Below the pieces are notes generated by a model that worked only from the letters and a program-made list of their open reading frames with translations, was not told where the DNA came from and did no database searches. DNA of 64,000 bases from Gnetum montanum (Eukaryota > Plantae > Gnetophyta). Within the stretch, counting starts at the first letter, position 1; every line of letters starts with the position of its first letter. The DNA lies in NCBI GenBank assembly GCA_015680685.1, contig MNCI01003141.1:4404-68403 (forward strand), written 5' to 3'. Below are positions 15,259 to 64,000 of this stretch, one piece after another. A program made the translations under genes and the position numbers.

Positions 15259-18200
15259 TCATGGGTTGTCTCTACCCCCATCATCCTCATCATCTTCTTC
15301 TACATCACCTTCCTCTGTATTGTCCCCTACTACCACTTTACTCCTTCCTGCTACGGTCCCTGCGCCCTCATCGGGAACTTGCATTGTAGAAATGAAGTAG
15401 TCAACTAAGGCAATGTACACAAGTTACAATAGAGCATAAGCATTAATATAGTAGGAAGCAACTAACCTAAGAAGGACCTACATCTGTATCGAAGGGTAAT
15501 TGGTCTAAACTGAGCCCGAGGTGGTGCCGGACTTCCTCTTTCGTGATGTCCACCCAACGCTTGATGCTAGGTTCAGCGTTTGCAGTACCTCTCTCCCTTT
15601 CAGCGATCGTCCACCTTGGTGGTCCTAGAGAAAAGGAGGCAGTTGCGGTCTTGCCTATGGGAAAGTCCACTTCCCATTTAGGATATTTCGTAACCTTTAC
15701 TTGCTCTTTGAACTTACCATAAGCCTAAGAAGCGCCAATAGCATTTATGAATTCCTTATAGGTAAATGCCTCCATAGTAGCTTCCCTATATAGTTTACGA
15801 TAGGTGGCATGTTCCAGTTTATACATATGTTATGGTTCTTCTAGAACTGCCCCCATTCGTAAACACTTGCACTGTAATCCTTCCAATCCTGACACTTCTG
15901 GGCCAACAAGTCCATTTGCATTCGCTGCTCTATTATTTCATGGGTGGCTTCATTTTTCTGACACATGACTATCGAAAATATAGCATGATCTATCACAGCC
16001 ATGTGCTAGTCCTCATTATTAGTATCACAGGTTATGAGGAATTTGTTCCTCGATTTGAGGTCCGCCACCTTAGCACTGAGGTCGACCTTCTCTTTCTCAG
16101 CTTTTTGGACCCGTTTCCACATGTTCTCATTGATGCACTTATACTCCAACAAGGAGCAGGCCGAATGCAAAGAACACTTGCAAACCTCATCATATGCACA
16201 ATGAGACACCTCGATCAGTTCGGGTAGGAATGTAGGCACGACACCGACTTTCAAAGGCTATGCCAGGTTCCATTTGAGTTGAGAGGCTACCCTGACATAA
16301 AGAACATATCAGTCACATTAGCATAGAAAGGTTAGCAAAACTCAAATCATCTAGCATAGCAACACGAGAGCACCTAACACCACTACTTACCCACTTTAGG
16401 ATCAACCTGCTGAAGATCGTTGATCATGTCATCAATGATCCCTTGAGTAAATGTAAACTTATCATGGGTCTCGTCCCATGGTTCCACATGACTCGGAGGG
16501 GGTTCTGCAACATCAATAGTGGCACTTTTCATATAACTAAATGAATAAGTAATGACCAAAATAGGCTATGACAAGGTGAACATATTGTCGAACTCACGAG
16601 CATCCAGTTGTGGTCTCCCTTCCTGCTGATGCAAAACGATGATAGCAGCCTTGACAGAATTCTCTGCCAGGTCTGTACGGGCCTCTTCTTCATGCATTGG
16701 TGCCTTTCCTTTTAAGAGACCAATGTCTTTTTTATTCAAGGGAGATTCCTCTTCGTTAGTAGGATGATTCTACCTAATAACAAGAGACCCTGCATTAGCA
16801 ACAGGAGCTCCTTTCTTCTTGACTGGGGCCCTTCTCTTTGAGATCGGGTCCTCCGTGTCTTTATTTTTCACCTCCATCTTGGAAGCCGACACCTCTTCAT
16901 TTCCTTCTTCTTCCTCCTCCTCTTCCTTTGGAAACCAAAATCATGTTTGCGTTAGCCCAAAATAGGTTAGCCTAAAGAAAGTGCTACGCTATGCTACACC
17001 TTCTAGCATATCACAACATGGTAGGCATTAGCAAATTAGGCAAAGAATAAACATGAACAAAAATGTTTACTAATGGGGGGTTGCATCCTTTGTAGCTTAA
17101 GCCACAATCCCTTGCCCTCCTCTTCTTCAGCGTAGAGGGTTTCCTTAGCAAAAGGAGGCCTCTTTTGCTACAACTTTCTGGCCACAGTCTTGGCAATGAG
17201 ATGCTTCCTCTGTGACATGCTACCAGTTACAGCAGGGGGCATCTCTCCTATGCTATCTTGGCCATGAAAGTTGCAGGCCACGTGATCCTTAGTCATCACA
17301 GAAAATGACTTCCCAATTGCTTCTTGGGGATCTTGGGCTCAGGTGGTCTGGAGGATTTGGCAGATCCATGGTTTGGAAATCTGGTTGTGATTTTGTATAA
17401 TCCAGGCTTCATTCTTGTGAACTACTAGAAAATCCATGAAGCACCGCAAGCAAGCTATAAAGAAGGCATAAGGCAGGTTGAAATAGGACTCCTACTTCTT
17501 ATGGAGTCCCACAATTTTAGCTTGCAGGACTGTACATAGAAAATTAGCCTAGTTGTAGCAAGCCCCTTCCTCCATGACCTTGCACATTACCAGGGCCTAC
17601 TCAATCCCAAGGATCTTCCCTTCAGAGAGCACCTGGGGGAATGCGCAAGCACAAAAGATAGGTTCAACCTCCCTGGTGGGTCTTTCCTTGAGCTTCTCCA
17701 TGGGAAGCCCCTTCCACTCCTTGGTAAGCCCTAACCACTCTTGAATGTCCTTCTTCTGGAGGCTTAGCTCCCTGTTGGACTTTGACACTATGAGGACGCC
17801 ATTCATGGGGATGCTGAAAATATCTATGAACAACTGGTCATTGATTTCAATGACCACCCATATGTCGTGTATGCGCACGCAGAGGTAGTCTGCACTACTA
17901 GAAAAGGAGCTAACCAGGGAAAGCATCTCAGTGGTAGGAACACTCGGGTTCGGGGCCAGGAACAGATCCATAAGCCTAGCCTTTTGGATGTTTTGAACCA
18001 AGGAGTCCAAGGCTGCACTGCATATCCAGCACTGGCTCACCTCTACTTGTCCGTACTTGAAGTAGATGTTTGCCTCCTGGTGCTCAATGGTCACCACCAT
18101 CACGTCTTGGGGCTTTTTCACCCCTATAGTAACTTGCACAAAATATTTTAGCATGTAAAAATAGAGAAAACCCAAAAATTGCAAAGACACATAAGCATGT

Positions 18201-19739
18201 AGCACCTAATGTTCAGCTAACCAGGTTTTGTATGGTAACAGGAATAGCAGAAGATTAACTAGGACTTGTTCAACAGTGATTGGTTTGAAGGGTGCCCTTC
18301 CCTCATCCAACTGACCAAACTCCTTACACTTGCCATAGGGAATGGGGCATAGGTATGTGTGGTATTCACCCCTGCATTGACCAATCACACCTGCACGTAG
18401 GTTCTTAGCAGAAGAGAACTCCTACAGGGCTATCTATGTTATGGTCAGCACACCCGACTTATCGTGAAGCCCTTCCTTGATAAGGTAGAACTTAGTAAGA
18501 AAAACATATTGTTAGCATTTGACTAGCATAGCAAGTATTGCACAATACAGTAGAGTAGGGCTACAAAACTCACCCACTAGCATAGTAGATAGTCCTTGGT
18601 GGGTTTTCCAAGCACATTCCCATATGACACGCAACAAACAATGTGTTGTAAGCATGGTAGCAGCTATACTTAGGCATACCCCCGATCCAAGCCAAACACC
18701 TCAAATCTTTGGGGTGTTTGCTAGATCCTTCTCTATGCCTACTGCTAATTGCACTATCCATCAAAAATCTCAAGATACCCTGATTTGCCCCAGGAAACAA
18801 GGTTTCTGTTATGATGGCCGCCTCTTCCTCCTCTAGGTATGACCAAACAATCACACTAAAATGTTGGAGGAGAAACTGTAAGAACTCCTGTGCTACTTGC
18901 TTGAACTAGAACCCCCACTCTCCCACATGTGCATGGGGAGGAGGAACATTGGCCACTGGTTTGCTCATGCAACACAGGACCCCTACAATTTCTAGGAAAA
19001 TCAGAGTTGCCCTCAGCACTATCCTGCACAACACAACTAGTAAATGTTAGCATCATGCCCAAGTGCAATACACACACAGCGTAGAAAGACCTAGCATTTT
19101 AGCATATAGCGTAGCATAACCCTCTTCTTGCCCATAGTGTAGTAAGAATGTGAAAGAAATAGCATAGTAAGAATAGCCTAGCGTAGCAACAGAGCGATTA
19201 AACCTAGCAGAGTGATTAATAATACACCTTGACAAAACATGTGTCATACTATCACATCCCACATGGCGAAACCCTCCTAAGGATCCTACGCTATGCCATT
19301 CTAAAGCCAAGTAACTTTAACCATCCAAACCCCTATGGTAAAGACAACTGTAGCGATGGTGGTCTAGGCAACCTTCCATGCAATGATGGCGTAGCATTTG
19401 TGCATTTGCCATGGCCAAAATGGAAATGGCGATGATGTAAAGGCCAAAAAAATGATAACACAATGACAGTAAACACAAACATCTAGAACTAAATTGCAAA
19501 GAAAAAAATAGAAGCAGAAAAACAAAAATGATAACACCATGACATGCACCATCACACGCACCATGACACGCACCTATGTGACACGCACCAGGAAACAGAG
19601 GAAGCATAGTAGCCTACCAAGTCAACGGCATCTCCTCTCGCACCATGACATGCACCTATCTGATGCGCCCTAGGGTTTCCTTTACCTCATTGACCTTCGC
19701 GAGCACCAAGTGTATACGTTCTTTCTTTGAAGCCATCAT
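15259..19739 (-). pseudogene. Antisense multi-exon accessory gene of element A (FCP1-like pseudophosphatase + accessory domain + coiled coil)
   Basis: Exons approx 19739-19618, 19023-18574 (450 nt), ~18490-18262, 18132-~17071, ~16935-16598, ~16535-16391, 16286-15467, ~15380-15259; protein-level similarity to copy C in exons 2, 3, 4, 6 and 7; scattered stops. Confidence 0.85.
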
Positions 19740-19885
19740 TCTGCTTGCCAACTCCTCCTCGTTGCTATGTCAAAAATCGCCTTGCTCTTCGATAGCACCA
19801 TCGTTCTCACTTTGAAATCACTTTGTGCTCCAAATGTGGGCTCTGTATTGTTACGATGAAAATAGCAAGTTTAATAGAGGTTAAT

Positions 19886-19898
19886 CCCTATTTATAGC
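19886..19898 (-). promoter_or_regulatory. TATA box of antisense gene in A
   Basis: Minus strand gctataaataggg about 150 bp upstream of the ATG at 19739; positional equivalent in C at 56413. Confidence 0.6.
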
Positions 19899-25481: not shown

Positions 25482-27227
25482 TGAAACACCCTAAATTTTC
25501 AAGGCATTCTTGCTTCACTAGGCCATCATAATTCAGGCAGTGTCACAATAGTTCATCAGGAGATGGATGTTCTGGGCTCTAGGCTATACAGTTTCACAAA
25601 TTTTCTAGCTAGGTAATTCGTCCAGCCGATAGCCTACATAGAAGTAATGTGGAGAGTTTTTGGCGATGCTCAAAATGTGCAAAATAGTTTGGAAAGTTTT
25701 CTAGTTAAGGAGTTTGCTATGCTATGCCACACTATATAGCGTAGTAGACTTTGGAAAATAGTTGTTCAAATAGTCAACTACAAATTATTGCAAGAAAAGG
25801 CACTACGTAGCATAGCACAGTGTAGGGATAGCAAGATAGGAAGGCTTAGCCTACTTAGTGATTTTCAATTACACTAAGTTAGCATTCCTAGCCTTCAAAA
25901 ATAGTTGCTTCTCTCAACTCCAAGTGCTTCAGCAATGGCTCCTTCACAAGAAAACAACAAACTTAGTAGAAAAGTAGGCTATCTTAGTTGCTATGCTACG
26001 TAGCATAGCATAGCATAGCAACTCTGTGAATGGCATCTTAAAGGGCAGGATCAGCAAGTTCGCAAGGTTCACAGCATAAAAGGCAAAGTTTGTAGATTGG
26101 CGACATTTTCACGACTAAGGCTAGCTGCTACGCTATGCTATTCTCTATAGCATAACAAAGTCTAGCAAGTGTCCGAAAATTAGTCGAAGTGCTTCAAAGG
26201 TCTCTGACACATGCAATAGGACACAACACAAGTTTTTGCTTCAAACTGATGGCTACGCTATGTTATGCTGCATAACGTAGCACAACGTAACAAGTTGCCA
26301 TGCTACACCTGCATGCTACGCTACAAATCATGGCATGGTGTAGTAGATAGTTACGCCACATCAATGCAGTTCACCTAATTACACCGTTGGCACACATCTC
26401 CAAACTCTGACGGTGCAATTACAGTGTGGCAGGTTCGCAATTACAGCATGGCAGGCTCGTCCAACAGATATGCATGTCCAACGATCATGCATGCCCATTC
26501 AGCATAGACAATTTAACATAGGCCCAAGGCATGTGGTGTCCAAACCACATCTTTCGCATGCCCTTGTTCCTATAAATACCCCAATGAACAATGCTCCAAA
26601 AAAACCATTTTTAATCTTTTTGGGGGGCTTGTTTGGCAATTTGAACAGTTGATAATTTTGTTGACTAGCAAGCAAGAAAGTTAGTATTGTATTCTTGGCA
26701 TTGTAAACATCTTGTTTGACACCACAAATATTTGGCACTCTTGCTTGGCATCCTTTCCTGCTCTTTTCCACTATCCTCATAGCATTTTGTATTGTTGACT
26801 CCTAAATCTGTGTTCAAGTATACAACTGTCTTCCTCTAAACATCTTGATTACCTTTGGGATGTCTGCACCTCCCCACGTCATGCAACAAATTGTATCCAC
26901 CTTGGTAGAGTGGAGTCACATTCTTGAAGCAGTGCATTTTTATAACTGAAATTTACTTTGTTTTCTTGCTTATTATCACATTTCACATTTTTTTTTACCC
27001 CTTTTGCATTTAAAGTTATCATTTCATGATAGAAGTCTCATTTTCAAATTATCTATTTACGAAAGGTTATATTAACACTGACTATGTCCCTGTCTGATTG
27101 ACCTGATCGTTCAGGGCACCCCATTTCCATTTTATCTAGCACGACCCTCACATGAATATGGGGTTAAGACTATCATGATCAACGACCTCTTGGTGTTTTT
27201 CAGCCATCGATGTTTTCAGTCGCTACA
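25482..27227 (+). repeat. Element A 3' LTR (~1.75 kb)
   Basis: TGAAAC...GCTACA termini; 3' half matches the 5' LTR; U3 is rich in TAGCRTAGC/GCTAYGCTA motifs; TATA near 26570. Confidence 0.8.
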
Positions 27228-31760: not shown

Positions 31761-32029
31761 GCACATTAACCTTTACATGCCCTTAAAACTAGATGCATCA
31801 ATGTCCATGTAGCCTAATCTTTCTTTCTTAATTTATTATACCTTTTTATGTATTTTTTTCACCCTTTATGCATGCAACCTAAGTTTCTACTTTCATTTGC
31901 AATTTTACTTATATATATTACAATGTTTCTTTTTATTTACTTTTACTCATGTCATAAACATAAAAAAGCCTTAAAAACTTTAAAACATATAATCACCAAA
32001 AAAAAATATAGGTTTCTCTTCAATAAAGC

Positions 32030-32250: not shown

Positions 32251-32536
32251 ACATGTATTTTATTACATTTATCTTTTACACACATCACTTAGCCATTTGA
32301 CTTTATAGCCAAAATCATCAACATAGGCATTCATAATGCTTAGTAGAACAATATATATAGTCAAGAATAAAATCAAAATTTAAATTTAAAGTGTCTATAA
32401 CATACATAGCCATGGCCATATCGTGTGGTAAAATGTCCAAAAACTAATAACAACCATATACGACATAGTCTTAGCTAACAACAACCATTAACATAAAAAT
32501 AAAAACAAATAGCCAACAAGAGGGTGATGGAGATTG

Positions 32537-39830: not shown

Positions 39831-39849
39831 AGTCACAACAGATTTTAGG

Positions 39850-48702: not shown

Positions 48703-50512
48703 GGGATCTAAGAATCCCATCCCTAGTGGATACTCTAGTTTCTAAGATATTCCCAGTTATGATCTAATCATAAATGTATATTTCATATATTTGCTTATTT
48801 CTCACCTTGTATGTGGAACCAAAATGTCGAGCATTATGCATGCATGGTGCAAGAGTAAGATAAGGAGTATAGAATATAGTAAGGCAAGGTAAGGCAATGT
48901 TCTTGCATGAAATTCCTAGAAGTGTTTCTTATTCTTTATTTACTATGACTCATTTAAATGGTAGAAAGTGTCTTATTCATAAGTAAGATGATCCATGTCT
49001 TATAGTCTATACCTATCTTATAGAGATTACAATAAGCTCATTCTTTAAATGAGTATATAGGAAACAGCCTGATTGGATAAAATACTAAATCAATAAATAA
49101 TAATATACAAGTGAATGTCAATTGTAGGATGAAAATCAAGTACTACAATAAATACACTTGTGAGTGGCTCCAACAGGAATGAATTTGGATCCTTTGGATA
49201 GGGAATGATTAATAACCATAATTTCCCTATGGGCTTGGAGTGTAGTTTGCAAGGACGTGGATGTACCTAAATAAAAACTAGACATCAACCCAACCTTAAT
49301 AATTTGAAATATAATAATTTCAATGAATAATCACTAAATTTTAATAGTTATATGATTCCAAAGAATGATCTAGAATTAGGTCAATTATGTTTATTGGAAG
49401 CAAACATTCCAGTGGTAGTAGTAAAAACTCATCTATGTATGATTATAATAGCTACTAATGTACTTCATAGTTGGGCTATAACTTCCTTAGGTGTTAAATG
49501 TGATGTTGTATCTTGGAATTTGAATTAGACTTCTATTTTGATGGAACGACCAATAATTTTCTATGTTTAGTGCAACGAGATTTGTAGAACCAATCATATA
49601 TCACTTCCAAGCTATATCAGTCACGAGTTAAAACACCATTCTACTATTTTTCCAAAATTAGGTGACATAAGGCAATTTTTAGATATAAATTAGGTTTGAT
49701 AGTACATTGAGACAATGGGAAGGGTGATTTCATCATGTTCAAATAGCAAAAGTAGTGCCTTCAATTGATTGGAAAAAATATCTTTACCTAGTAATCCTTC
49801 TGAAATTTTTTCCTCCCTTATAATTCTAATAAAGTTATGTGAGAATGTTATGTACTCTACGGTCCTTTAATTGTACAAGAAAAATCAATATATAATTTTC
49901 AAATATAAAGAGCTAAAGATTACTAGACTTAGAAAAATTCTTGACTCTAAAAATGTAAAGATCATGATGATAAAATTAGAGGTCTAAAGTCAAAATGCTT
50001 GGTCTTGTTGGATGGGTGTAAAGTCCAAACAAGGATAGGGAATCTTTGATGATCAGGATCTTGCTAATTAGGGTTAATCAAGGGATGAAGATCATTCAAA
50101 GCAAGATGTAAAAAGGATAAAATTCCAGTAAGACTTCATGTAGTTAAGATCCAAATTCAAGGTGCGATTTGAAAAAGAAATTCAATTTTAATAAGACTTA
50201 ATTAAAATTATAGTTTGGACCCAAATCTACTTAGTAAGGGTGGCCATGACAATCACTAAGTGAATTTTCTTAAAAAGATAAGATTTCATATGTCTAGCCA
50301 TGGTAGGATGGACATGACTTAGGAAAGACTAGAAGTCATTATGCTCAAATTTCTATGACCCATCAACTAAAGCCAGAGATGGGTTTTCCCATCTATCCAT
50401 AGGGANTGTGATGAGTAAGAGAAATGTATATATGAATATGTGGCTAGTGGAGGCCTTCCCTATGGATAGATGGGAAAACCCATCTCTGGCTTTAGTTGAT
50501 GGGTCATAGANG

Positions 50513-51068
50513 ATGTTGTGTTGGGCGTATACGTTGAAGGATGTTGGGCGTATACGCTGGGCATATACGCTAATGGATGCGGGGCATATACACTGGGCGT
50601 ATACGCTGAAGGATGCTGGGCGTATACGCTGATGGATGCTGGGCGTATACGCTGAGTGTATATGCTGAAGGCTGGCCACTTGCTTCAATCCTTGGTCTTT
50701 GGTGTTATCTTCATGTTGTCATTGGAGATCTTGTCATCGAGAGTGTGCACCTGTAGTACCTGAGCATGCACGCCGGAGAGTCAGGCGTATACGCTGGATG
50801 CATATGCCGTGGAGTGTTGGGCGTATACGCTGCAGGTGTGAACTTGGGTGTATACGCTGGGCGTAGACGCTGGGTGTAAACACTGCAGGTGTGAACTTGG
50901 GCGTACACGCTGGGTATATACGCTGACACAAAATACTTAGTGAAAACCAAGCATTTCGAGCTCCGAAAGTGCCATGTATGACAACTCATGTAGCTGAGGT
51001 TGTCCGCAAGTCTCAAGGACCTGTTTGGCATCAGATGAGTACTAAGCTCCAAATTTTATGGTGTTTGA
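50513..51068 (-). repeat. Element C 3' LTR (U3 part) with GCGTATACGC motif cluster; PPT at 51069-51082
   Basis: PPT/LTR junction aligns with that of A; more than 10 (G/A)GCGTATACGCT-like motifs in 50520-50930. Confidence 0.7.
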
Positions 51069-52104
51069 TTGGCCCCTATTTGTTGACGCTTGGAGGAATC
51101 AACCCAAGAAGGATCAAAAAAGAAGTAAAAAACACCACAAGCAACTTGATAAAGACATTGCCTGCTGCCACTTGACGAGATGTGATTGCACCATGTTCAG
51201 TAGTACATGGGATCGGGAGAGTGAAATTTGTAGCGGGTGGGAGGATAGAGATTGTAGGGATTGGTGACTGCCCATGAGAATTGTTGTGGATAGGGCATGC
51301 TTGAGTATGTGGCATGTTGATCCTTGTCAATAGCCAATGTTTTAGCAGACTTGGAGTTCAGACATGTGATGTGCGTTCTTTGGCGGAACAAGGCTCTTGG
51401 TTAGGTTTCAAGAGAATTTGTTGGCAAGGCCAAAGCCACAGGAGGATGTGTTACATTCTTTAGAAGAACAGGGCCCATGTGTAATGTTCAGGGTAACCCA
51501 TTAATGGGGAGCCAAAGCCATGCAACTAGATGCTTCTTGACCATTTTGGACATGAGTACTTGGTTTGGAGACAACTGCCTTCCCGCCTGGGGCTTGTATG
51601 GGAAGTGCCAGAAGTCTCCTTTTTTTTGTGAAGAAAATTTGCCTTGATTTTTTACTCATGCTCGAGCACAGTACTGTGTGTTGAAATTGTGTTGAGGCGG
51701 CACAGTATTTTAAATGTGATGGGTGTATCGAGGGGATGCTAGGATAAATGTGTTGGCGAATGGATAGGGAATTTTTCTGGTGAATGGGGATGTACTAGTG
51801 AATGGTTTGATCTAGCTTTGTCAAGTATGCTACAAAAATTATCTCATCATGCTGCTGATGGAAGAAAGAATTCTTGGGCAAAATCTCTGGGTGTCATCCT
51901 ACAAACATAACTCCAAGGAGACAAGAAAACCGGGAGTGAATAGACTAGCTTAGACTTACACGGCAGCCGATGGTGCAGAGATGCTGAAGGATGGCAGGAA
52001 CTATATGTAGATGACAACAGTACTGGTAAGGGTGATTGATGACAAGCGATGCAGTGAAGCTGATGGATGCATCATGGCAGTGGATTGATGGGCCGGATGT
52101 GAAC

Positions 52105-52440
52105 CTGTCAGTTTATAGTCTTGGCAGACTATCATGGGATAGTTTTATGTCATAACCTGTTGGACATTACCTATTTAGCGTCGTGGCAGACGTTACATTG
52201 CTAGTTTTAAGTCTTGGCGGACTGTGAAGAGACAAGCTAGTTTATAGTCTTAGCGGACCCTGATGGTTGTAACGGTGGCAGTTTACTGTCACGCCGGATG
52301 GATGCAAGTTTATCGTCATTGCGGACACTGTGGTGTCAGTTTTAAGTCATAACCCAGGACCATTCTGTGGTATCAGTTTATCGTCATGACTCTAGGACGA
52401 GCTATGGTATCAGTTTATAGTCATAATTCTAGGACTTACA
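52105..52440 (-). repeat. Tandem array after pol of element C (GACTATAAACTG core on element strand)
   Basis: Repeated cagtttatagtc/cagtttatcgtc on +; same position as array 3 of A. Confidence 0.8.
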
Positions 52441-52457
52441 CGTACCTGAGCTTGTAT

Positions 52458-55400
52458 TTAGACGCACAACGGTCTTAGGTACAAGTGATTGCTTGGGTTA
52501 GCAAGCTCGTTCCCTTCCGTATCAGCCAGCTTGAATGCACCATTATCAAATGCCTTGATGACCATGTAAGGCCCTTCCCAGTTGGCTGAGAATTTTTCCG
52601 GGTGTTCTCGAACAGCCTTGAGCACGAGGTCGCCTTCTTGGATGGGGCGCTTGTCGATGTCATTCCGATGTCGCTGTCATTGTTGCTTTTGGTAACATTC
52701 GATTTGATCGAGCGCGCGTACACATTCTTCTTCCACTGAGTCGAGGTCAACGATGCATAGATCATTGTTTTGCCCATCGTCGACGAGTCCAAAAAGTGTG
52801 ACCCTTAAAGATGGTACTTTCAATTCCAAAGGTAAAACAACTTCTGAACTGTAAACAAGACTGTATGGATTTTTACTTGTTGATATTCGGTGTGTAGTGT
52901 GGTATGCCCACAATGCATATATTAATTGTTCATGCCATTTCTTTTTGCTTTGCGTGAGCATTTTCTTAAGTATTGTAATTATTTTTTTATTTGTTGCTTC
53001 TGCTTGCCCATTGCTCTGAGGATAGTAAGGGGATGAAAACGAGTGTTTGATCCCCAAACTGTCACAAAAGGTTTTCATCTCGGCACTGCTAAATTGCAGC
53101 CCGTTATCAGTGATGATTGTCATGGGAATGCCAAAATGGGCTACAATGTTTTCGAGAATGAAATTGCACACGTGCTTGGATGTAGTTTTTCAAAGGGGAG
53201 TAGCTTCTACCCACTTCCTGAAGTATTCTGTGGCGGTTATCATGAAACCGTGCCCTATAGACGATGAGGGTGTTATTGGACCAATGAGGTCCAATCCCCA
53301 TTTTTGGAAGGGCCACGTGATTTGCGCTGTGTGCAATTCGTTCAGTGGGACGTGGATTAGGTTGCTATGTTTCTGGCAAGTATCTCATGTCTTAACCTTG
53401 GAGAGACAGTCATATTCCATGTGTGGCGAATAGTAGCCTAATCGTCTTACTTTTGTGGCCATGGCTTTTGGCGCTATGTGTCCTCCGCATAGTCCCTCAT
53501 GTACTTGTTCAACAATTGTTTGGGCATCGGTACTATTGATGTATGTTAGCAATATGCCTTCGTAGGATCTACGACATAGTGTGTCCCTTACCAGGGTATA
53601 CTGCTTAGAACGTTTCCGCACTGCGTCTTTCTATGCATTTGTTAGATGTCATGGTGTTTCACCACGTAGAAGGTACTCTTTTATGTCATTGTACCATTCC
53701 ACTGCGTGTGTTGTGCTAACAGATGCAATTGGCAATATGTCGGGAGTATCGATTATTGGTTCAGCATAGTTGATTACAGAGCTTGGTAAGGCATGGAACA
53801 TGTCAGGTGATATGTTTAGCACCAATGTGGCTAATGCATTTGCGATGGTATTATCATTTCGAGAGACGTGTTGCACATCAATGTTTTCAAATCGCTTTAT
53901 TAAGTTTTTTGCCAAGTCACAGTATGGTTGTAAGTGTTAGGCTTTGCACGTATAGATGTCTGTGACTTGGTTGAGTACTAGTTGTGAATCGCCTCTGACT
54001 ACTAGCCGTGTGATGTCTGAAGCCAGTGCTGCTGCAAGAACCCTAAGGAGACCTTCATACTCCACTATGTTGTTAGTACAGTGAAAGTTGAAATGGTAGG
54101 TGAAGAGTCGGATCTCCCCGGAGGGATAGGTGATGACAGCAGCTACACTCCCTCCTCGAGAGGTGGATGCTCTATCAAAGATTAGAACGACATCATAATC
54201 TTGGGGCACTATGTGTATGGCACTTATGTTTTCATCTGGGAATTCCAGCTCTATAGTCACTTGATCTAGTGTGGGTGATGTGGCCATCTGATCTGTTATG
54301 GCTTGACCTTTGACTGATGATTGCACTAAGTAGTATAGGTCAAACTCGGCTTCATGGCTTTCCATTGGGCTATTCAACTTGTTTCGTAAATGTTCCCTGT
54401 TATGGCTCTCAGTACATTGTCTTACAAATTATGTAGACTTGGTTACGGAAGAGGTAATGTCACCATTTTCTTAAAGAAAAGACCAAAGCTAAACATGACT
54501 TCTCCACGTCATTATACTTCTTTTTGTGGGCAACTAAGGTGTGGATCAAGTAGTATAGAGGGACTTCGGTCTCGTCATCTTGTTTCTGGCATAGCATAGA
54601 CATGATTGACGATTCCGAAGTGGCAAGGTAGATGTAAAACGATTTGTTGTTTTGGGGTGGGTAAACCGTAGGCAGTCGGGCAAGTGCTGTTTTGATATTT
54701 TTGAAGGCTTCTTGGCACTGAGGAGTCCATTCGAAATGGTCATTTTTACGTAACAGGTGGTTCATAGGTTTTAGTTTGTTCCTTAATTTTTCTACGAAAT
54801 GCCTAATGAACTACAATCTACCTTGTAGACCTCGAAGTTCGGTAAGGTTTCTTGGTGGTTTCAGGTTTGTTATGGCCTTGACTTTATCGGGGTCTACTCG
54901 TATCCCTGCTTCAGAGGCTATGAATTCGAGCATTTTGCCTCTTTTGATGCCAAAGACACATTTTTTGTGTTGAGCCTTAGTTCATACATTAAACAACACT
55001 TTAAGACTAAGTCGAGGTCTTGTACATGTTGTTTGGCCATTTTTGACTTGACCATGATGTCATCCACATAGTCATTGAATGACCGTAACATATAATCACT
55101 AAAGATAAACGTCATGGCTCTTTGATACATGGCCCTAGCATTCTTGAGAACAAAGGGCATCATTGTGTAGCAAAAAGTTCCCCATGGGGTCATGAAAGTT
55201 ATCCGAAGTTGATATTCAGGGTTGATGCGTATTTGGTTGTATCCCGAAAAACCATCCATAAAAGATAGTAAGGCATGCCTAGCAGTCGAGTCAACAAGTT
55301 GATTGATGCTGGGTAGGGGAAAGTCATCCTTTATAGTTGCTACATTTAAATCTCGGAAGTCAATGCATAGGTGAATGCTTCCGTTTTTCTCCAGGACGAT

Positions 55401-55931
55401 GACCATGTTGGACACCCATTCGGCGTAATCAACAGCCCAAATGAAACCAGCTTGGTAGAGCTTGGTGATCTCATTGCAAACTGCCAATGCCACCTCGGGT
55501 TGAACTTTTCATGCTTTCTATTTTATCGATCTCAATTTTGGGTCTAGGATAATGTTGTGTTGGACAATTCTAGGATCTAGCCCGGGCATGTCTGTATAGG
55601 ACCAAGCGAACACTTTCATGTTTTCCCTAAGCACATTCTGAATGTCTCGGGCCAAGTGCGGTTGTAGTAATGTACTCAATTTTAATATTTTAGTTTCCCC
55701 ATTAGGCATGATAATGGGAGTTTTAGCTAACGGATCTTCGGTGATGTTTTCGGTGTCTATGTCAAGGAATTTTGTCATGCCCCCATAATTGTCTATTGTT
55801 TGCCATGTTGAGGCTATGACCACAACGTCCGTCAGTGGACTTAAGTTGATGCAGTTCATGTCAATGCCTCGTGTAATGTTGCCATATGGTCCGTCAATGA
55901 TTAAAGGTGCGTTTAAATGCTGGCAGTCCAT
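52458..55931 (-). pseudogene. pol: Element C pol: RT-RH-aRH-IN (few stops and frameshifts)
   Basis: VFAWSYTDMPGLDP, CIDFRDLN..KDDFPLP, LSFMDGFSGYNQI, YVDDIMV, aRH IFDRAS..TNNIVEYEGL..GDSQLV..NTIANALA, IN ITDNGLQF..YPQSNGQAEATN. Confidence 0.95.
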
Positions 55932-56044
55932 CGAGTTTGTTCCTGCCAATAAACCGAGAGTTGTATGAGCAAAGGGGTATTGTTCTATGCTTTTTGGTGA
56001 TTTAACTATGTGTACGTGTATAATGGTGGATTACCGTCACACTT

Positions 56045-56285
56045 GGACGCATGGCAGTTTAATGCCCTACCAGGTAGTGAGTGGCAGTTGAAGGCCGTAC
56101 CGGGCCGTGAATGGCAGTTTAAGGCCATACCGGGCCGTGATCGGGTAGGGAAATGGCAGTTTAAGGTCGTACCAGGCTATTATGGCAGTTTAACCAGCGT
56201 AAACATGTAAGACGGGATCCATGAAGGAACCAGGACGTAATAATTAGGGAAGTGGCAATTTAAAGCCGTAGCAGGCCATAATGTG
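56045..56285 (-). repeat. Tandem array upstream of pol in element C (GGCCTTAAACTGCC core on element strand)
   Basis: Repeated tggcagtttaaggcc on +; equivalent of array 2 in A. Confidence 0.8.
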
Positions 56286-56411
56286 TGTTTTAACAATTTT
56301 AATGATTTTTTGATTATTTTTTTGGACAAATTTTACCGAAAAATGCGCGAAAAAAGCAAAAGGCAAAAAATGGAGCAACAACGGAGGTGTTAGCGTCAAT
56401 GTCATCGAGCA

Positions 56412-56422
56412 CTATATAAAGG
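56412..56422 (+). promoter_or_regulatory. TATA box of the accessory gene in C
   Basis: ctatataaagg about 200 bp upstream of ATG 56616; AATAAA poly(A)-like signal near 61189 after the stop. Confidence 0.6.
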
Positions 56423-56615
56423 GAAGCGACAGTGTGAGCGATAGCGTAAACTTGTTAAGGCGTAAGTGTAAACCTCAATACCCTAGCGTAAGTGTAAACC
56501 TCAGCATAGATGCCAAGGACTGATCCCCAGCGTAGACGCTGAAGCTTAAACTTCTCAGTGCCAGCATAGACAGTTGCTCAGCATAAACTTAGATCATCAG
56601 CATAGACACTCCAAG

Positions 56616-59600
56616 ATGGGCAACGGAAAGGAAGTGGAGGGCCAGGGGAGGAAGGGTCCCGATCTAACGTTCGTCGAAGAGACGGAAGCCATGCTACAGG
56701 GTCTGCCCAGGCCAAGGATGCTGTCGTGGCTCGTGACATCCCATAGGTAAGCCTTGATCCCTGTCTTTGTTGTTATTTCCATGCTTCTTAGCGTAGACAA
56801 TCCTGGCGTATACGCTGAGCGTAGAGGGTTTTCGGCCTATACTCCAGCATAACTATGCAGCGTAGATGGTGTTTATCAATTTACTAGCATAAGCCCGTTT
56901 CTGTGTTATGTTGGCATACGCTCCGGTATGACTGTGAAGCTTGTCGGCATGTCATCAGCGTAAGTTGTCATATGTGACGGCTTATACGCTGAGGGTTTGC
57001 CCGGCATATACGCTGAACGTGTACAGTTGTCTTTTGGCGTACTGTTTTATTTTCTGGCATAAACAATTTACGCTGAAAGTGAACTCGAGCGTATACGATG
57101 CGGGTTTCTTCAGCATATACGCTGTGCATGAAGGGGTTCAAGTGTCAGCATAGATGCTAAGTGTGGTAGCGTATACGCTGAGTTTAAATCACGTTTTTAT
57201 GTGAAGTGTTGGTTGGCGTATATGCTAAGTTTGAATTACGTTTTTTTACGCTAAGTGCTAACAGTTTGTCCGGCGTATACGCTGCGTATAGCGTATACGC
57301 TGAGGGTGAATTGTGGGCGTATACGCTGTGTACAGCGTATAAGCTGGGCGTAAGTTGTGTTTTTCATGCTAAGTGTAAAGTTTGACTGGCGTATATGCTC
57401 TGTGTACAGTGCATACGCCGAGCGTAAACAGAGTTGATTTTTGATTTATGATGCAAACTTTCATTTTGTGGCATTGCGATTGATTGTAGGGAGAGCAAAC
57501 GCTTCCTTATAATGGTCGAGCTTGTCGGGGTTCTCACATGGGTCGGCCTTGCTCAGGAGGGAAACCGTTCCCCAAATCTAACCATGGATGAAAGTGGGGT
57601 TTGGTTCAGGGAAGGTGCTTGTGAATTCTTGGCCTTTCTGCTAGACAATTTTGAAGTAGCCATGTGGTCGAATTTTGACGAGGTGACTGCATGGAGCGTG
57701 GTTGATGCAATGCTTCTGGGGGCTGCCGAGGGTGTCATGGTTTTCATCGAAGACATTGAAGAGGGGCTATTTTTTGATGAGGATGGTACCACTTGTGGGC
57801 CCAAGTCAACATGCCCGTTAATGCGCATGTGGGCATTGCTGCCCTGAGGGTTGGACTACCTCAATAACACATTGTTTATAGCTCCTCGTGCATATACCCT
57901 ATTCCAAAATCCTCTTGGCACAGTATACAGAGTAACCAGGTGAGACCATTTGACTTTATTACTTTACCTATCATCATTTGATGTTAGTTTTTATTTTAAA
58001 ATGCGTTTGTTTGCAGGCCGAGGACCAACCCATACCGGACCCTCATTGAAGATGAAGGACTAGCCCTCGCTTGCACTGCTCTGGAGGCTTTTATCATAGG
58101 CCCCACGCTTCATGGGATCGTACTAGCTCAGACGAAGGGTTTAATGGCCCATTTTCATAAGCAGTTTTCTAGGTCGTTTGCGATGTGGAAGGCTCGTTGG
58201 TGGCTCCATGAAAACTGGACAGATCAGGGGCCAGTCTTTCTTCATAACTTTGGCAGCACTTTGAAATCTACCACTAACGGTGAGTGGTAACATTTCCAAG
58301 ATGCGTTAATGGGTTTGTTCAACTGTTTGAGGTTATGCTGATATGGTCATTTGAACTTGTTTTAATAGTTGTTGCACCTTCCGGTGGGGATCCCGTGACG
58401 ACAGGATGGACTAAGATAACTTTGTCAATGAAGTTCGGGGAGGTGGCAAAGGTGCATAAATGGCTGCGTAAGCAAGCTTCACCATCCCTTAATCGTTGCC
58501 TAGACGATGCTGGTCTCCTGGAGCTTTTCATGATGCCAAGCCCTGATGTATCCATTAGGGAGATGATCGGGATTGTGGACTCTTTTAATGAGTCTGTCTC
58601 ATAATACAGCACCCGGATCAAGGGTGTTAAGGTGGTGTTTCATCTGTCTCCTGTTTTCTTTTCTAATTTGTTTGGCATGCTGGTAGATGGCCTACCTATA
58701 GTGTTGGACAGATCTCATAAAGAGCTCCAAACAATCTGTGAGCTAGAATCTTGGCTTGGCATGGCCAAAAGCACCAAGGGATTCCCGATGCAGGGGAAGG
58801 AAAAAGTTTTAGAGGTAAACGAATTATACCCCCTGTTTCGGGCACAGGCGTTCCCCAAGACTCTTTCTCAGGTGTGGAGCTTCGGGGTTGAGGCAGTATG
58901 CATTATGCGAACAATCTTAAAAACTGGCATGCGGTATAACTGGGCTCAAGTTTTGTTGGCGGGCCTACACAAGGAGATCATGCGATTACGCTCGAACAAC
59001 AAAGCGCAATCTCACTTCACCTTTGCCTTCTTTGCCAGTTATCTCCGCCATTTTTCCGAATTTCTTGTGGTGCGTGCTGACAACAAGTTCGTCCTACGGG
59101 ATTGGGGTCAACTATCCCGCCCATGGGTCAACCACTTATTTGCAACTGCCAAATCATAGGACGCCCCAGAAGGTATCGATGAGTCTGTGTCTGTTACCAC
59201 AGGGGGATCATCTGGCAATTCCATCCACACACGGGATAGTCTGGGGTTAGAGCCAGATGATGTACCTCTAACCACTAGGCGGGCAGAGCGGGTCATCAAG
59301 GAAACCATTGGCAAAGCCAAGTCGAAGTTGAAAAGACCCAAACGCGCAATAGAGGAAGTTGCCTATATAAACCAGCCACGCGTGAAGTGGATACGCTTCA
59401 AGATACCTGGTAAGCGAAGCTCATCTACTTATTATTTTATCATTTTTGTTTATTTATAACCTTTACTCTAATTGCTTATACGTGTTGTTGCTGTTTTTGG
59501 TTTGAGGCAGTGAGGAAACAGGCCTTGGAGACCATCACAAAGGAGGAGGAGATGAATACAGAGAAAAACAACAAGAAGGAAAGCCCAAAGAAAAGCCCGG

Positions 59601-61097
59601 GTGGAGGAACGGAGCAGCTAATGGAAAAGAACATCGAAACCGAACCATTGGACAACTAGGGTAGTATCGATCAAACACTTCGCAAGTTTCTTTAGGGAGA
59701 CCTGGATTTAGGTGACCCCCTAGAAGGTGATAAGGATAAGGGTATGTATTCCCCCTTTTCGTTCATTTTGTTTTACCAAATCAATTGCCGCTCCTACGGT
59801 TTGTTATTTTCATGTTTTTTTTATGCTTATCAGATGAAGGCAGCGAGATGAGGATAGTGCAGTTGGACGTACCTATGAAGACGGTTCCCCTGGAGAGGAC
59901 CGTTGAGGTTACTTCATCTCGTACCTGTCAGCCACTTACTTGGTCAGAAATGCTAAGTAAGATGGATTTTGTGGATGGGATCACTGAGGAAGTCGTTGAA
60001 CATCTCCAAGATGTCCACCCTGATATAGGTATGAATCACTTAAAGATTTGGAGCTTCACATCTCATTTGTATAGTTTTAACATTTGTATATTTTCTGCAT
60101 GGGCAGGCGCTAAACTAAGATGGGATCCCTCTGAGAGCATCAGCATGGAAAGCTTGGTCACACTCTCCCCAGAAGTGGAGCAAGTGCCAAGGCCTATTTA
60201 TGAGGGTGTTGCGGAAAGCCTTGCGCACAACGCTAAGTCATTGTGGACTTGTAGGTGTTCCATTGAACAGTTGCGGCTACAATTACAAGCAAAAGAGAAG
60301 GAAGTCTCCGAATTGTCAGAGGAACATGATGATTTGAAAGCTTGGTACAAGTTCGCCGCTGCCAGATTAAGTGGAGATCGTTCTTGGTGAACTTCCGAGG
60401 TCACATATACCAGGTATTGGAACTTACTGAATCTTCATGCATCGCTAACTTGGAGGATGGCAGAACGCAAAGTGCAGATCGATCTCCTAAACCTCAAGTA
60501 TCAAGATTGGAAGGCCTTTTCTTCCAAAGTTTGTAAGTGGGGTCAAGATGAGAAAAACCACAAGCATCAGTATAATAAATTGCTGAAAGAGGTGTCCATT
60601 GAAAAACGATAGCTAGAGATGTTTGTGGAAGGTTTAGGCTTGCGTTCTGCCTTTAATACATTTGCCAAAAACACAACTGTAGAAATGGAATCGCCTACAA
60701 GGGAATTTACAATGGCTTCTGGGGAGGTGTCGGTAGGTGAATTTCCTCTAAAACGTCCTACCTATTCGGCTATTAACAAAGGTAAGACTTTGGCAGACGT
60801 TGACTTAGGCTTGGATGGAACAGATTGGGATAGTGTTTCAGAGGAAGAAATCCTCCGTCGACTTGAATTCGGCTTAGGGGGATCCCCTATGGTAAGCGTT
60901 TTGTCCTTAGAAGGTTATTTTATCGAATAACGTTTAAAATTTTAACACCGGATTATTCCTATGTTGGTTGTTTATTATTTTTTTCGCATTTTCAGAATGA
61001 AGGTGGTGATGATACTCACAAGGCTGGCCCCAGTGGAGCAGGGGCCCCTGACACTGGTGGCTCTAAAGGAGATGATCCTCCTGTCCTGGACGCTTAG
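56616..61097 (+). pseudogene. 8-exon accessory gene antisense to element C (~1065 aa; FCP1/SCP-like pseudophosphatase, accessory domain, acidic/basic linker, coiled coil)
   Basis: Exons 56616-56746, 57490-57939, 58017-58279, 58369-59409, 59511-59741, 59834-60028, 60107-60891, 60996-61097. All introns are GT-AG with compatible phases; total 3198 nt = 1066 codons; only scattered point stops. Confidence 0.88.
56780..57430. repeat. Cluster of palindromic GCGTATACGC(T) motifs in intron 1 of the accessory gene
   Basis: Many gcgtatacgctg copies and decayed variants (gcatatacgc, gcgtatatgc). Confidence 0.85.
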
Positions 61098-61472
61098 TGT
61101 TTTTTATTTTTTGTGGTTTTCGCTGATTGATACAGGAATTGTAATTGAAAATGTTGAAAAAAAAGGAACAATTGTACAATGTGGCATGAATAAAATATTT
61201 TTTTGTTTGTTTTCAATCTGGTTGTACATACGACACGAGATTAAACTGTTTTCAGATTTGTTTTTCTATTTTAAATGTAATGCACTAAAATGATGATAAA
61301 AGGTACACGCTAGTTTCGGGCCTGGTTTGCACTAGTTTGAAACTATTTTGGGCCCCCATGCATAGTTTAAGGCCGTTTTGGGTTCCATTGTGATGTTTTA
61401 GAGAAAGGGAGTGAGTGTCTCGGTTGACCGGTCATCTCTGACCGTGGCTAGTTTTATGTCGTTACAGACATG

Positions 61473-61810
61473 ATAGTTTAACGTCATTCTAGACTCGGGG
61501 TATGGTTGTTTTAATAGGTATTTTTAGTTTAACGTCATTTCGGATGAAGGGTAGTTTAACGTCATTCTGGACTTGGGGTATGGTTGTTTTAATAGGTATT
61601 TGTAGTTTAACGTCATTTCGGATGAAGGGTAGTTTAACATCGTTTCGGACTTGGGGTATGGTTGTTTTAATAGGTATTTGTAGTTTAACGTCGTTTCGGA
61701 CGAAGGGTAGTTTAACGTCATTTCAGACTTGGGGTATGGTTGTTTTAATAGGTATTTGTAGTTTAACGTCGTTTTGGATGAAGGGTAGTTTAACGTCATT
61801 TCGGACTTGG
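61473..61810 (-). repeat. 78-bp near-perfect tandem repeat (~4 units) after gag-PR of element C
   Basis: Each unit holds two GACGTTAAACTA cores (element strand); degenerate cores continue to ~61310. Confidence 0.92.
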
Positions 61811-61817: not shown

Positions 61818-64000
61818 TTATTTTAACTGTTTTTTGATCTTATTTATTTTTATGTCAGGGGGTGTATTAGTCGATACGATTTTGTATTCAGCATCTCCTT
61901 CGCTGATCACGTTGAATGGTAATTCAGTCCAGGAGACATCCGATGGTGTATTTTCGGTACTAGTATTGTCAAGTGTTTCGGTGTCTGTCATTGTTTTGGT
62001 TTTAGGCTCTTGTCCCGTGTTCAAAAGTTCATTACCTACCAGTTGCATTTTGTCTGAGTCCTTTTGACTAGGCTTGTCGAGTTCAACCTACGAGCCTTGG
62101 TTGATGTCTGTGTGCGATCAAATGATGGGAGTGACTGCTTCCCCATGTATGATGACTTCACCACCCTCATAGGGTAGGTGAATCTCCTGATGTATAGGGA
62201 AGGACACAGCTCTCAATTAGGCTAACTAAGGTCTTCCTAATATTAGGTTGAATCTTGGCATTTCATCGACAACCAAGAAGTCAGCAGATGCGGGGAACTG
62301 GTCTCCTGCTATGAAGTCTAGGGTTATTGTGCCCTTGACCAGTATGCGTGACCCGCTGAAGGACTTTAAGCATGTTGTTGTCGTAGGTTTGATTAAGTCG
62401 GTGAGCCCCAGTTGTTCAATGATAGGATATGGTACAAAGTTTGTAGCTGCCCCATCATATACATGGACCCTATGTATCTTGAACTCATTTACGTGTATGG
62501 TTATAAACATAGGGATTGTTGTGGTCTCTCCTGTCTTCTTGTCGACTTTGATGCTATCATCATGGAAGCTCAAGGGCTTAGGACTGACCCCGTGAGATGG
62601 GTACATTACTGCATGAATGGCCGGTTCGCTGGGGGCAAGTCCTCACTGACCGAGATCAATGTGAGCATCCACACTAGAGCTCCCGATGAGTCTGGGATGT
62701 TAGTACCAAGTCATACAAGCTTAAAGAAGTGTTCTATTGTTTCAAGGCTTGTGTGACTTGCGTTAAGGCTGTCGCAAGATCTCTGCTATTAGGGGCGCTC
62801 TTATCAGTGGTGACTAGGTCCATTAGGCCCAACAACTTTATTTCTTTTTTTTGCGACCTATCGTTCTTCTTCGTCGTCGTAGTTTTGGCTGGGTCATATT
62901 GCTTTGACGGTTCACCTTGATTTTCTATGTTTGATTGTTTGTTAGTTTGTGACATAGGCATGGAACTAAGTGGAGTGGGTTTGGGTGGCCCCAGAGCCAA
63001 CCATTGGTGCTCTTTCTCTATGCATTCCCATGTAAGCCTATCAGCTAAGCGTTCCCAATGTGGAGGTGGAGCTAGTTTTGAAGCCTTGGGTTGCCTTGGG
63101 ATGCGCACCACATATGGAGGTGGGTGGGATTGTGGTTGATCTGCATGGGGTGTTTGAGCTAGAGACTGGCTAGGGACCCTAATGACATAGGGGCAAGCTT
63201 TGCCTTGCGCTTTTGAGGTGGAGATTTGTTTGTTATTAGGATTTTTAGTTGTCCTAACAACATTTGGGGATGGTTTCGGTGGAGGTTGGACCTCCGCTAT
63301 TGCGAAGGAGGGTAGTACTCGGACTATGAAGAAAGCAAGTCGAGTTTGGGGAGTTAGTGGCTTTGCGAAAGTGGACGTAGCTGGAGGTATGCAGACGACG
63401 TAGGGCTGCTGGGGGGTACGCGGAAGTTGAGATGTGGATGCCGATACGGTGGGAGGAATCTACACTATGAAGGGCCTGTTAGGTGTTTCTGGTTTACTTT
63501 GAGGGTAGATGGTGTTAATATCCTTGGAATCATCATTAAGGTAGATCATGTTAATCACGTACAGAGCCTCTTTAGTATTCAGGGGATCTTTATACACCCC
63601 CATGGCCTGATTTTGCAGTTGGACTAGGTTGGCCTTGTCAAAAGTGATCTGTCCATCATCAATCATCTGCTGGATGTCCTGCTTCAAAGTGAAGCAGTAA
63701 TCCATTCCGTGCCCGTTGCGTTGATGGTAGTCGCAGAAGCGATCCATCCTAAAACCCTTGGGTACAGGCAGCTTATCCAGCATTGCTAGGCTCGGGTTCT
63801 GTATGAGTTGGTAGAACCGGTCATGCCTTTGGATGGCCACAGGGGATAATTGTTTATGTTTCATTAGCCCAGCTTTCAGGAGTTGATCAAAGAGGTGGGA
63901 TGCTTTCTTCGGTAGAGGCATGTATTGAGAGGGTTCTTTCCTCTCGAAATTACAAGTACGGTTTGTTGGGTTCTGTGATGATGATGACTCCAGGGCTATT
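61818..64000 (-). pseudogene. gag: Element C gag (3' part)-protease
   Basis: FCDYHQRNGHGMDYCFTLKQDIQQMID; IHRVHVYDGAATNFVP..RFNLILGRP; ends ..ELPFNVISEGDAEYKIV..*. Confidence 0.88.

Follow-up and report, generated by a model that had tools for sequence, protein, structure and literature searches.

Two Tat/Ogre-like retrotransposons of Gnetum montanum carry clusters of element-specific short words in the putative U3 and in intron 1 of an antisense accessory gene

Analysis of a 64,000-nt stretch of Gnetum montanum DNA (the window) reveals that two LTR retrotransposons, A and C, each amass a short word of their own at two places, the probable U3 part of the LTR and the first intron of an accessory gene running antisense to the element. 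These clusters are far above chance and are limited to non-coding element DNA. By analogy with the VANC proteins of VANDAL transposons, the accessory protein would bind the word of its own family and thereby keep that family active, a reading that we put forward tentatively and at somewhat less than an even chance.

The exact word GCGTATACGC occurs 11 times in the window, all in element C and none elsewhere, with six copies at 50548-50830 and five at 56806-57326 within intron 1 of the antisense gene. The original prediction had placed clusters at 50520-50930 and 56780-57430, and every exact copy falls there. Allowing up to one mismatch gives 24 matches, of which 11 fall in the first tract and 12 in intron 1, with a single one at 56530, and allowing up to two gives 36, with 30 inside the two tracts of C and 6 outside them; none of 500 dinucleotide shuffles reached the observed counts in either tract. 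A fuller form of the word, GGCGTATACGCTG, has the same orientation at both sites. The U3 cluster (50525..50923, no strand assigned) comprises 14 copies with up to two mismatches, lies 145-545 nt inside the LTR and has a tandem-like spacing of 13, 23 and 36 nt. The intron 1 cluster (about 56789-57426) also comprises 14 such copies, dispersed at intervals of 18-145 nt. CpG is retained in 21 of 28 and 19 of 28 motif slots, a figure biased by how the copies were picked. The half-site AGCRTA occurs 26 times in intron 1 as against 0-1 times in each of the remaining six introns, and it also lies between the TATA-like box and the start codon of the C gene (56443..56602, plus strand), always on the strand of the gene. 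Half-sites had been anticipated near this TATA, and seven AGCRTA are indeed found at 56380-56746, downstream of the box at 56413.

Element A carries a different but related word, TAGCRTAGC, with 10 copies in 25700-26409 and a U3 cluster at 25716..26323 that holds 12 copies within one mismatch in both orientations. In its intron 1 region (19030-19535) there are two exact copies, five with up to one mismatch and six of the shorter TAGCRTA, counts reached by none of 500 shuffles. The expectation that the A word would sit in equivalent places is thus borne out for both regions and fails as to exclusivity, the word also being found in other introns (16352, 16983, 16988 and 18524) and at 20108. The words of A and C have the core AGCRTA in common and differ around it: element C has a C before the core in 24/36 cases and a T after it in 26/36, whereas element A has a T before it in 18/22 and a G after it in 17/22. 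In C the half-sites seem to abut as an inverted pair, and in A to follow one another as 5-bp direct repeats. No enrichment of AGCRTA was found in gag or pol of either element.

The claim that the word agrees within an element and differs between elements holds apart from this common core. The 7-mer spectra of the two C tracts have a similarity of 0.588, above all 30,135 distant background tile pairs, and those of the A tracts 0.24, within the top 0.1% of such pairs, whereas values across the two elements are 0.017-0.096, a level that 27-99.9% of the background pairs reach or surpass; the comparison within the lineage covers two elements, A and C. Because the U3 and intron 1 tracts share only the word, with common runs of at most 15 nt in C and 11 nt in A, it is ruled out that either tract arose by copying a long segment from its partner.

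The predicted placement in an intron stands up to inspection of splice sites and reading frames, which indicate a real spliced gene antisense to the element. In C it runs from 56616 to 61097 on the plus strand with eight exons (56616-56746, 57490-57939, 58017-58279, 58369-59409, 59511-59741, 59834-60028, 60107-60891 and 60996-61097), GT..AG borders in all 7 introns and a carried frame that is the least-stopped one in all 8 exons, and it contains 7 premature stops. Intron 1 (56747..57489, plus strand, 743 nt) carries the second motif cluster, and a TATA-like box at 56413..56419 (plus strand) marks the putative promoter. The gene is homologous to that of A in the same relative strand; the latter occupies 15260..19896 on the minus strand with a TATA at 19896, is likewise broken, and has its cluster at 19078-19395 in an intron 1 (19024..19535, minus strand) for which the donor site is provisional. 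All copies of the gene seen in this analysis are broken. No splice joint appeared among the 15 listed of 481 joints in a poly(A) run, where 841 of 991 reads were less than 90% alike, a result that is uninformative on expression.

The U3 label of the other cluster could not be proven inside the window because the LTRs of A match only partially, the 5' LTR of C lies outside and the 3' LTR of C is cut at an N at 50511; it is backed by public contigs for A and by homology for C. The LTRs of A match each other only over 10005-10820 and 26415-27231, with 85% identity. In two runs, 87 and 94 public contigs have unrelated loose flanks before 25482, placing the LTR start there, and the resulting 3' LTR (25482..27227, plus strand) is about 1.75 kb long, starts with TG and has a TATA at 26571. 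The 5' LTR (10005..10816, plus strand), followed by the primer-binding site, lacks its initial ~930 nt and with them the motif cluster. An LTR start at 26415/10005 was rejected, as neither a polypurine tract, a TG nor a target-site pair was present, and there was no pile of loose-ended contigs among the 12 positions listed. In C, the U3 part of a 3' LTR remnant (50513..51068, minus strand) begins at 51068, a position that aligns with the LTR start of A, with a purine tract and then (T)G/C-AAACACC in both; the putative polypurine tract of C, recognized from its sequence and from the alignment to A, is at 51069..51081 (minus strand). Both clusters thus appear to lie in U3, the position in C depending on homology. 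The U3 clusters are upstream of the LTR TATA, and the intron 1 clusters are just downstream of the TATA of the accessory gene.

Three further features were considered and set aside. A candidate env-like ORF in sense orientation, preceding the U3 cluster, has no Pfam match, and the conserved stretch is the polypurine tract and LTR start; open frames across 50353-51055 reflect a repeat that simply lacks stops. A perfect inverted duplication of 54 nt, flanked on each side by a single N (50352..50510, no strand assigned), is outside the element and is likely a mis-oriented scaffold piece, with an opposite-strand joint in two other runs.

Judged by their coding sequence, A and C are Tat/Ogre-like Ty3/gypsy LTR retrotransposons. 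The pol region of C (52460..55940, minus strand) encodes reverse transcriptase (RT), RNase H, a second RNase H of archaeal type and integrase, is broken by stops and frameshifts, matches A by tblastx and gives Pfam hits to RVT_1 (4e-16), RVT_3 (2e-07) and rve (9e-11). The second RNase H lies between the first and the integrase, the arrangement by which the Tat clade is recognized in PMC6317226. As in Ogre elements, gag-protease is apart from RT, here by a spacer of about 6 kb in both A and C; the end of gag and the protease of C are at 62091..64000 (minus strand, by tblastx to A), and the element runs past the window. The extra gene occupies the interval from protease to RT. The Ogre ORF for a plant mobile domain (PMD) is placed elsewhere, either upstream of gag or on the antisense strand behind pol. 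No Pfam family was found in the 3' region of the element. A second word, TAAA(A)CTR, forms arrays at three non-coding sites: after the integrase (52115..52417, minus strand, all on the element sense strand), before RT (TAAACTG, 56061..56192, minus strand) and after the protease as a tandem array of a 78-nt unit with TAAACTA (61369..61792, minus strand). These arrays are fixed in strand, unlike the AGCRTA-type word, which occurs in both orientations.

Exon 2 of the accessory gene (57490..57939, plus strand) encodes an FCP1/NIF-like HAD domain, with E values for Pfam NIF of 0.013 in C and 0.00047 in A; both matches fall short of the curated cut-off. The catalytic motif of FCP1/SCP (NIF) phosphatases is DxDxT. 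This motif is absent from both proteins, in which the position of the first catalytic Asp is Glu (ELVGVL in C, EIVGVL in A), and the domain is likely inactive judging from these residues. Exon 4 (58369..59409, plus strand) encodes a large conserved domain that has diverged faster than the integrase, being 30% identical between A and C as compared with 59%. Its resemblance to PMD is at most weak: Pfam gave an E of 0.064 over one 184-amino acid stretch and no PMD for a longer read-through, profile-profile comparison with 40 PMD proteins gave a probability of 0.14% (E 0.41), and a profile built from 120 PMD proteins did not pick exon 4 among 852 six-frame tiles. A PDB sequence search with the accessory protein gave no match. 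Structure predictions had pLDDT values of 30 and 38, too low to bear on the fold, and a fold search with the pLDDT 30 model, itself uninformative on fold, found no match at E<=0.001. Exon 7 (60107..60891, plus strand) appears coiled-coil-like from weak matches to coiled-coil Pfam families.

Homologues of the accessory protein were absent among 193 and 1308 candidates, 1.84 billion representatives and two sets of 357 and 122 stretches. The ESM Atlas gave leads only, to unnamed plant clusters (best 0.90) and to one at 0.84 with DUF1985 on 13% of its members, and comparison with the Transposase_32-type ORF of the window was not significant (E 0.16). In viral contigs, the doubled C word had no match and an integrase search returned 0 of 16 stretches. 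The integrase search of metagenomes returned 1 of 92 stretches, the sole related locus retrieved (L001), which is intact though only distantly related and bears a true antisense PMD gene (E 8e-28). Its word, WTCGGCW, chosen after the fact from the top k-mers of L001 itself, has 50 copies there as against three in A, four in C and none in element B. It is densest in the inferred U3 (11 copies in 519 nt) and extends element-wide, with 21 copies in gag-pol codons and 2 at the 5' end of the PMD gene. It is enriched at synonymous gag-pol positions, its counts being reached in 0, 0 and 7 of 500 codon shuffles.

Foamy-virus Tas is one element-encoded factor that acts on both an LTR and an internal promoter, in an animal retrovirus with a sense accessory gene. 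Another likeness is VANC21, described in PMC5735166 as binding a 9-bp word that its own family accumulates in introns, between genes and in terminal non-coding DNA; the copies often stand in tandem, and the word changes from one related family to another. A and C resemble VANDAL elements in having an element-encoded, spliced accessory gene and a partly tandem 8-12-bp word that varies by family (PMC5735166, PMC10398659). They differ in being LTR retrotransposons known from sequence, whereas VANDALs belong to the Mutator DNA transposons and their binding and demethylation have been demonstrated, and in the extra FCP1-like domain of the protein. VANC is reported to share structural homology with MAIN, a PMD protein (PMC13547354), and the PMD-bearing L001 has a word of its own; together these give the analogy an indirect link. 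The Spm activator TnpA also binds dense clusters of family-specific, CG-containing 8-10-bp words, in a DNA transposon with a transposase-derived regulator and terminal clusters (bioRxiv 10.64898/2026.08.24.746577). Were self-recognition to operate in A and C, the word would be read as double-stranded DNA, as its occurrence in both orientations suggests. Specificity could come from the pairing of one half-site, AGCGTA, as might be expected of a dimer or oligomer of changed geometry. Exon 4 would then be a DNA-binding unit remotely of PMD/VANC type, and exon 7 an oligomerization coiled coil. The protein would then keep its own promoter open, and then the LTR, in a positive loop.

Several observations argue against self-recognition. 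The same hexamer is kept despite proteins that are only 30% identical, which a conserved host factor would fit as well. The element-wide spread of the L001 word, gag-pol codons included, and its two copies at the 5' end of the PMD gene also tell against it. In a host-factor reading, which we consider unlikely, each cluster would be a homotypic enhancer whose AGCGTA/GCGTA core is recognized by a host transcription factor, LTR and internal antisense promoter being active in the same cells and family differences being drift in repeat arrangement. In its favor, A and C share the hexamer, both clusters adjoin TATA boxes and the core resembles the NAC-family site CGT[A/G]. LTR cis-boxes are often arrays of host sites, and Sirevirus repeats have been so read (PMC2829016). 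Against this, a host factor does not require an arrangement that is concordant at the two sites of each element yet differs between elements; L001 has an unrelated word at the same U3 position, and the A word also occurs within internal introns. No DNA-binding domain was assigned to the accessory protein by the profile, PDB or fold searches, which would also weigh against self-recognition, and the amassing of the second word at three other non-coding sites may mean that repeat build-up is a general habit of these elements. Neutral growth, in which slippage during reverse transcription amplifies units and template switching seeds the second site with no binding factor, draws on the same arrays, on the tandem-like periods of the C U3 tract and on the family-specific tandem arrays described as common in Tat/Retand elements (PMC11963269). 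It seems decidedly improbable, given that the intron 1 copies are dispersed with unrelated flanks, that conservation falls sharply outside a 12-13-nt core, that no run above 15 nt is common to both tracts and that slippage does not yield an enrichment at synonymous positions such as that of the L001 word.

The same layout is known from Sireviruses, for which host factors or hairpins have been proposed instead, and this precedent would likewise tell against self-recognition. These Ty1/copia elements have a CpG-containing, often palindromic high-copy word in U3 upstream of the TATA (PMC2829016, PMC4728375) and a second cluster at the 5' side of an extra gene, with words that differ by family. 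They are of another superfamily, with a sense env-like ORF after pol and a CGG-CCG core, whereas A and C have gypsy domain order, an antisense eight-exon gene, the second cluster in intron 1 and an AGCGTA core. In maize, Sirevirus U3 palindromes make hairpins that are siRNA hotspots (PMC4728375), and the present clusters could similarly act as RNA or single-strand structures (small-RNA-silencing hairpins or genomic-RNA pairing signals) or as CpG-rich islands. The three tracts folded were all better than shuffles (z -7.9, -3.8 and -7.3), and CpG o/e is 1.0-1.3 in the C clusters versus 0.5-0.7 in the rest of C. Tracts of a self-complementary word fold well and are CpG-rich by construction, however, the A word is not palindromic and no fixed stem-loop is common to the sites; we rate this explanation lower than any of the others.

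The DNA layout itself, then, has a precedent in Sireviruses. For the extra genes of Tat/Ogre/Retand elements, the role is presented as an open question in the literature drawn on here. The usual extra ORF of Tat/Ogre elements combines a PMD and a coiled coil, of function described as unknown in PMC4408406. A and C share with this group a Tat-type pol, a protease apart from RT, internal tandem arrays and an antisense extra gene with its own promoter, which in described elements encodes a PMD-coiled coil or TRP28 protein with a proposed but unproven regulatory role (PMC4408406, PMC6317226, PMC11963269, PMC7264820). They depart from it in that the described extra ORFs either precede gag or follow pol ahead of the 3' LTR, whereas here the gene is in the protease-RT spacer and has 7 introns, a layout that the supplements of PMC4408406 and PMC6317226 may list. 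A broader proposal, which we regard as doubtful, is that the PMD extra genes of Tat/Ogre elements are VANC-like anti-silencers that co-evolve with a family word amassed in U3 and around their own promoter. The present lineage would be a variant, with a dead FCP1-like domain in its eight-exon gene and specificity given by half-site rearrangement.

DNA transposons provide demonstrated cases of sequence-specific anti-silencing; among the papers listed by the literature searches, none showed it for an LTR retrotransposon. Candidate target words and a gene to test are now named, and L001 extends the question to elements with an intact PMD gene. In large plant genomes, few sequences are more abundant than Tat/Ogre LTR retrotransposons. 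If true, self-recognition would add programmable-looking epigenetic activators and would help to account for the ability of single retrotransposon families to evade silencing and enlarge plant genomes.

The clustering of a short word at two distant sites in each of two related decayed LTR retrotransposons, A (about 10005–27227, + strand) and C (50513 to past 64000, − strand, extending outside the window), is real. All 11 exact copies of C's palindromic GCGTATACGC in the window lie within C, six at 50548–50830 and five at 56806–57326; allowing one mismatch gives 24 matches, in C's two cluster areas, and the cluster counts were reached by none of 500 dinucleotide shuffles, which upholds the original prediction of palindromic clusters at both sites. 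The conserved core spans 12–13 nt (GGCGTATACGCTG). Copies show tandem-like spacing in the U3 tract (13, 23, 36 nt) and are dispersed in the intron tract (18–145 nt apart, flanks unrelated), and the longest run common to the two tracts is at most 15 nt. For A, TAGCRTAGC occurs 10 times in 25700–26409 and, in intron 1, twice exactly or five times within one mismatch; the predicted equivalence of sites stands for the U3 and intron 1 clusters, but further copies lie in other introns and the promoter. By 7-mer spectrum, C's U3/intron pair ranks first of 30,135 distant tile pairs and is more alike than A's own LTR pair, A's U3/intron pair falls in the top 0.1% of tile pairs, and all four cross-element A/C pairs lie inside the background, bearing out concordance within elements and difference between them. 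The words, originally described as different but related, differ in arrangement, an abutting inverted pair in C versus 5-bp direct repeats in both orientations in A, and have the half-site AGCRTA in common. No enrichment of AGCRTA was found in gag and pol of A and C.

The window alone does not show that the first of these sites is U3, as had been claimed; the assignment comes from outside contigs for A and from homology to A for C. A's LTRs are alike only over 10005–10820 and 26415–27231, downstream of the word cluster, and neither a PPT nor a TG was found at that matching edge. We compared A's region 23700–27500 with contigs of two public runs and tallied loose ends; among the 12 of about 4,600 loose-end rows listed, a pile was present before 25482 in both runs (87 and 94 contigs). 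These ends (median 59 and 55 letters) agree at 0.36, so the flanks are unrelated, and position 25482 starts TGAAACACC with a purine-rich tract ahead. The pile, together with TGAAACACC after this tract, points to an LTR of about 1.75 kb in A, which places the word cluster 230–840 nt into the LTR, upstream of the TATA at 26571, and leaves the first 930 nt missing from the 5' LTR. The stretch now in the place of this lost U3, 9690–9975, has a TATA on the reverse strand at 9956 and seven words resembling CATGGAR; it may be a promoter region belonging to a different family that has a word of its own. C is alignable at A's LTR boundary, where it too has a purine tract, and reads TCAAACACC at 51068; by homology its word cluster would lie 145–545 nt into its 3' LTR. 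That LTR ends at an N at 50511, adjoining a perfect 54-nt inverted duplication (50352–50510, a single N on each side) that is likely an assembly artefact.

Both elements belong to a nest of decayed plant LTR retrotransposons interspersed with scaffold gaps, and in each, about 6 kb of spacer separates gag and protease from RT, RNase H, second RNase H and integrase, in that order. In excerpts of the literature, Ogre and Retand elements are distinguished by an additional RNase H lying between RH and INT (PMC6317226), and Ogre is described as having its protease apart from pol (PMC4408406). Many diverged copies are present in public DNA runs of the same organism and related ones. Element B (27228–33415), a more decayed relative placed after A, retains gag-protease, a primer-binding site near 27381 and an antisense gene's 3' end; it is interrupted at 33416 by another insertion, and the end of B's LTR appears to lie close to where A inserted. 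A broken Transposase_32-type ORF (38828–39538, +; E 3.5e-08) lies in another LTR element, at about 33417–40000, and 40100–40270 (+) looks by eye like a candidate exon of a terpene synthase, with a motif containing DD and a GT donor after it. A 236-nt piece at 2776–3011, 96% identical to A's gag region 13389–13624 and with a single N at its end, is a stray scaffold piece or a small insertion.

The accessory gene of C, antisense to the element, runs from its ATG at 56616 to 61097 in eight exons, with a homologous gene at the equivalent place in A. All seven introns are GT..AG, the frame carried through is the least-stopped in eight of eight exons, and seven premature stops break the gene. Intron 1 (743 nt) holds 26 AGCRTA against 0–1 in each of the other six introns, placing the second cluster as predicted. 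Exon 2 (57490–57939 in C, 18573–19025 in A) resembles FCP1/NIF under the cut-off (E 0.013 and 0.00047), preceding a large conserved domain, as one fusion, in both elements. The catalytic Asp motif of FCP1/NIF phosphatases is absent from this exon, described here as a phosphatase-like decoy within a retrotransposon gene; the literature search found no paper on such a decoy. Identity between A and C is 30% in exon 4 and 59% in integrase. Exon 4 weakly resembles the plant mobile domain (PMD), to whose proteins MAIN belongs (E 0.064 in one domain search; E 0.41 against a PMD profile, across the conserved helix pair). The PMD was absent from further domain searches of the accessory protein, another PMD profile search did not recover exon 4, and five database searches gave no homologs.

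An integrase search led from 92 candidate stretches to one outside locus (L001, 48% identity), a nearly intact Tat-type element (1–13059) whose 3' antisense gene encodes a PMD (E 8e-28) and a coiled coil. Its word WTCGGCW, chosen out of its own top k-mers, occurs 50 times, most densely at 11560–11860, with 11 copies in the 519 nt of presumed U3 upstream of its TATA; the same word occurs 3 times in A, 4 times in C and not at all in B. L001's gag-pol holds 21, an enrichment that extends to synonymous positions (three ORF counts reached by 0, 0 and 7 of 500 synonymous shuffles), and the 5' end of the PMD gene only 2. The agreement of L001 with A and C concerns a family word and its peak density in U3, and does not extend to an intron 1 cluster.

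That each element's accessory protein would use the clusters as its own sites, at an internal promoter and the LTR, is the best reading, which we hold tentatively, at somewhat less than an even chance. Against it count the hexamer shared by A and C, in a comparison of two elements only, and the searches of the accessory protein, which showed no binding domain. A further word, TAAA(A)CTR, which mostly follows ATGRCN and is common to the different families, also counts against it, being amassed in arrays at three sites other than the AGCRTA clusters: downstream of protease, ahead of RT and downstream of integrase (14885–15086, 20094–20422 and 23936–24056 in A; 61369–61792, 56061–56192 and 52115–52417 in C; 31784–32072 in B). 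Its strand bias (20 sense versus 2 antisense in A, 24 versus 2 in C) hints that it may act in the RNA, for instance as a packaging signal. Clusters serving as an enhancer for a host factor seem rather unlikely, and their origin by neutral turnover more unlikely again. A hairpin or CpG-island role is the least probable of these; folding z of −3.8 to −7.9 speaks for hairpins, but such values are expected from the words themselves.

Dense clusters bound by an element's own protein have precedents in excerpted reports. The word bound by VANC21 is 9 bp long and abounds in its own family's introns, intergenic and terminal DNA (PMC5735166), in regions also targeted by RdDM (PMC10398659), and a structural homology of VANC to MAIN is reported (PMC13547354); Spm TnpA likewise binds dense family-specific clusters (bioRxiv 10.64898/2026.08.24.746577). 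A and C are not VANDAL members. Nor are they Sireviruses, although the DNA layout of the clusters is already known in those Ty1/copia elements, where palindromic CpG words lie in U3 and again on the 5' side of an extra gene (PMC2829016, PMC4728375, in part). Retand and Ogre have antisense extra genes, as A and C do, and family-specific arrays, for which the excerpts only propose a regulatory role (PMC11963269, PMC7264820). New here are a spliced gene in the protease–RT spacer that lacks a homolog in the databases searched, its FCP1-like part, and two arrangements of one half-site, each concordant within its element; a literature search at listing level turned up no account of these features, and supplements may contain such elements. 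The mechanism is plausible: the accessory protein of each element would bind the clusters and so act on both its internal promoter and its LTR.
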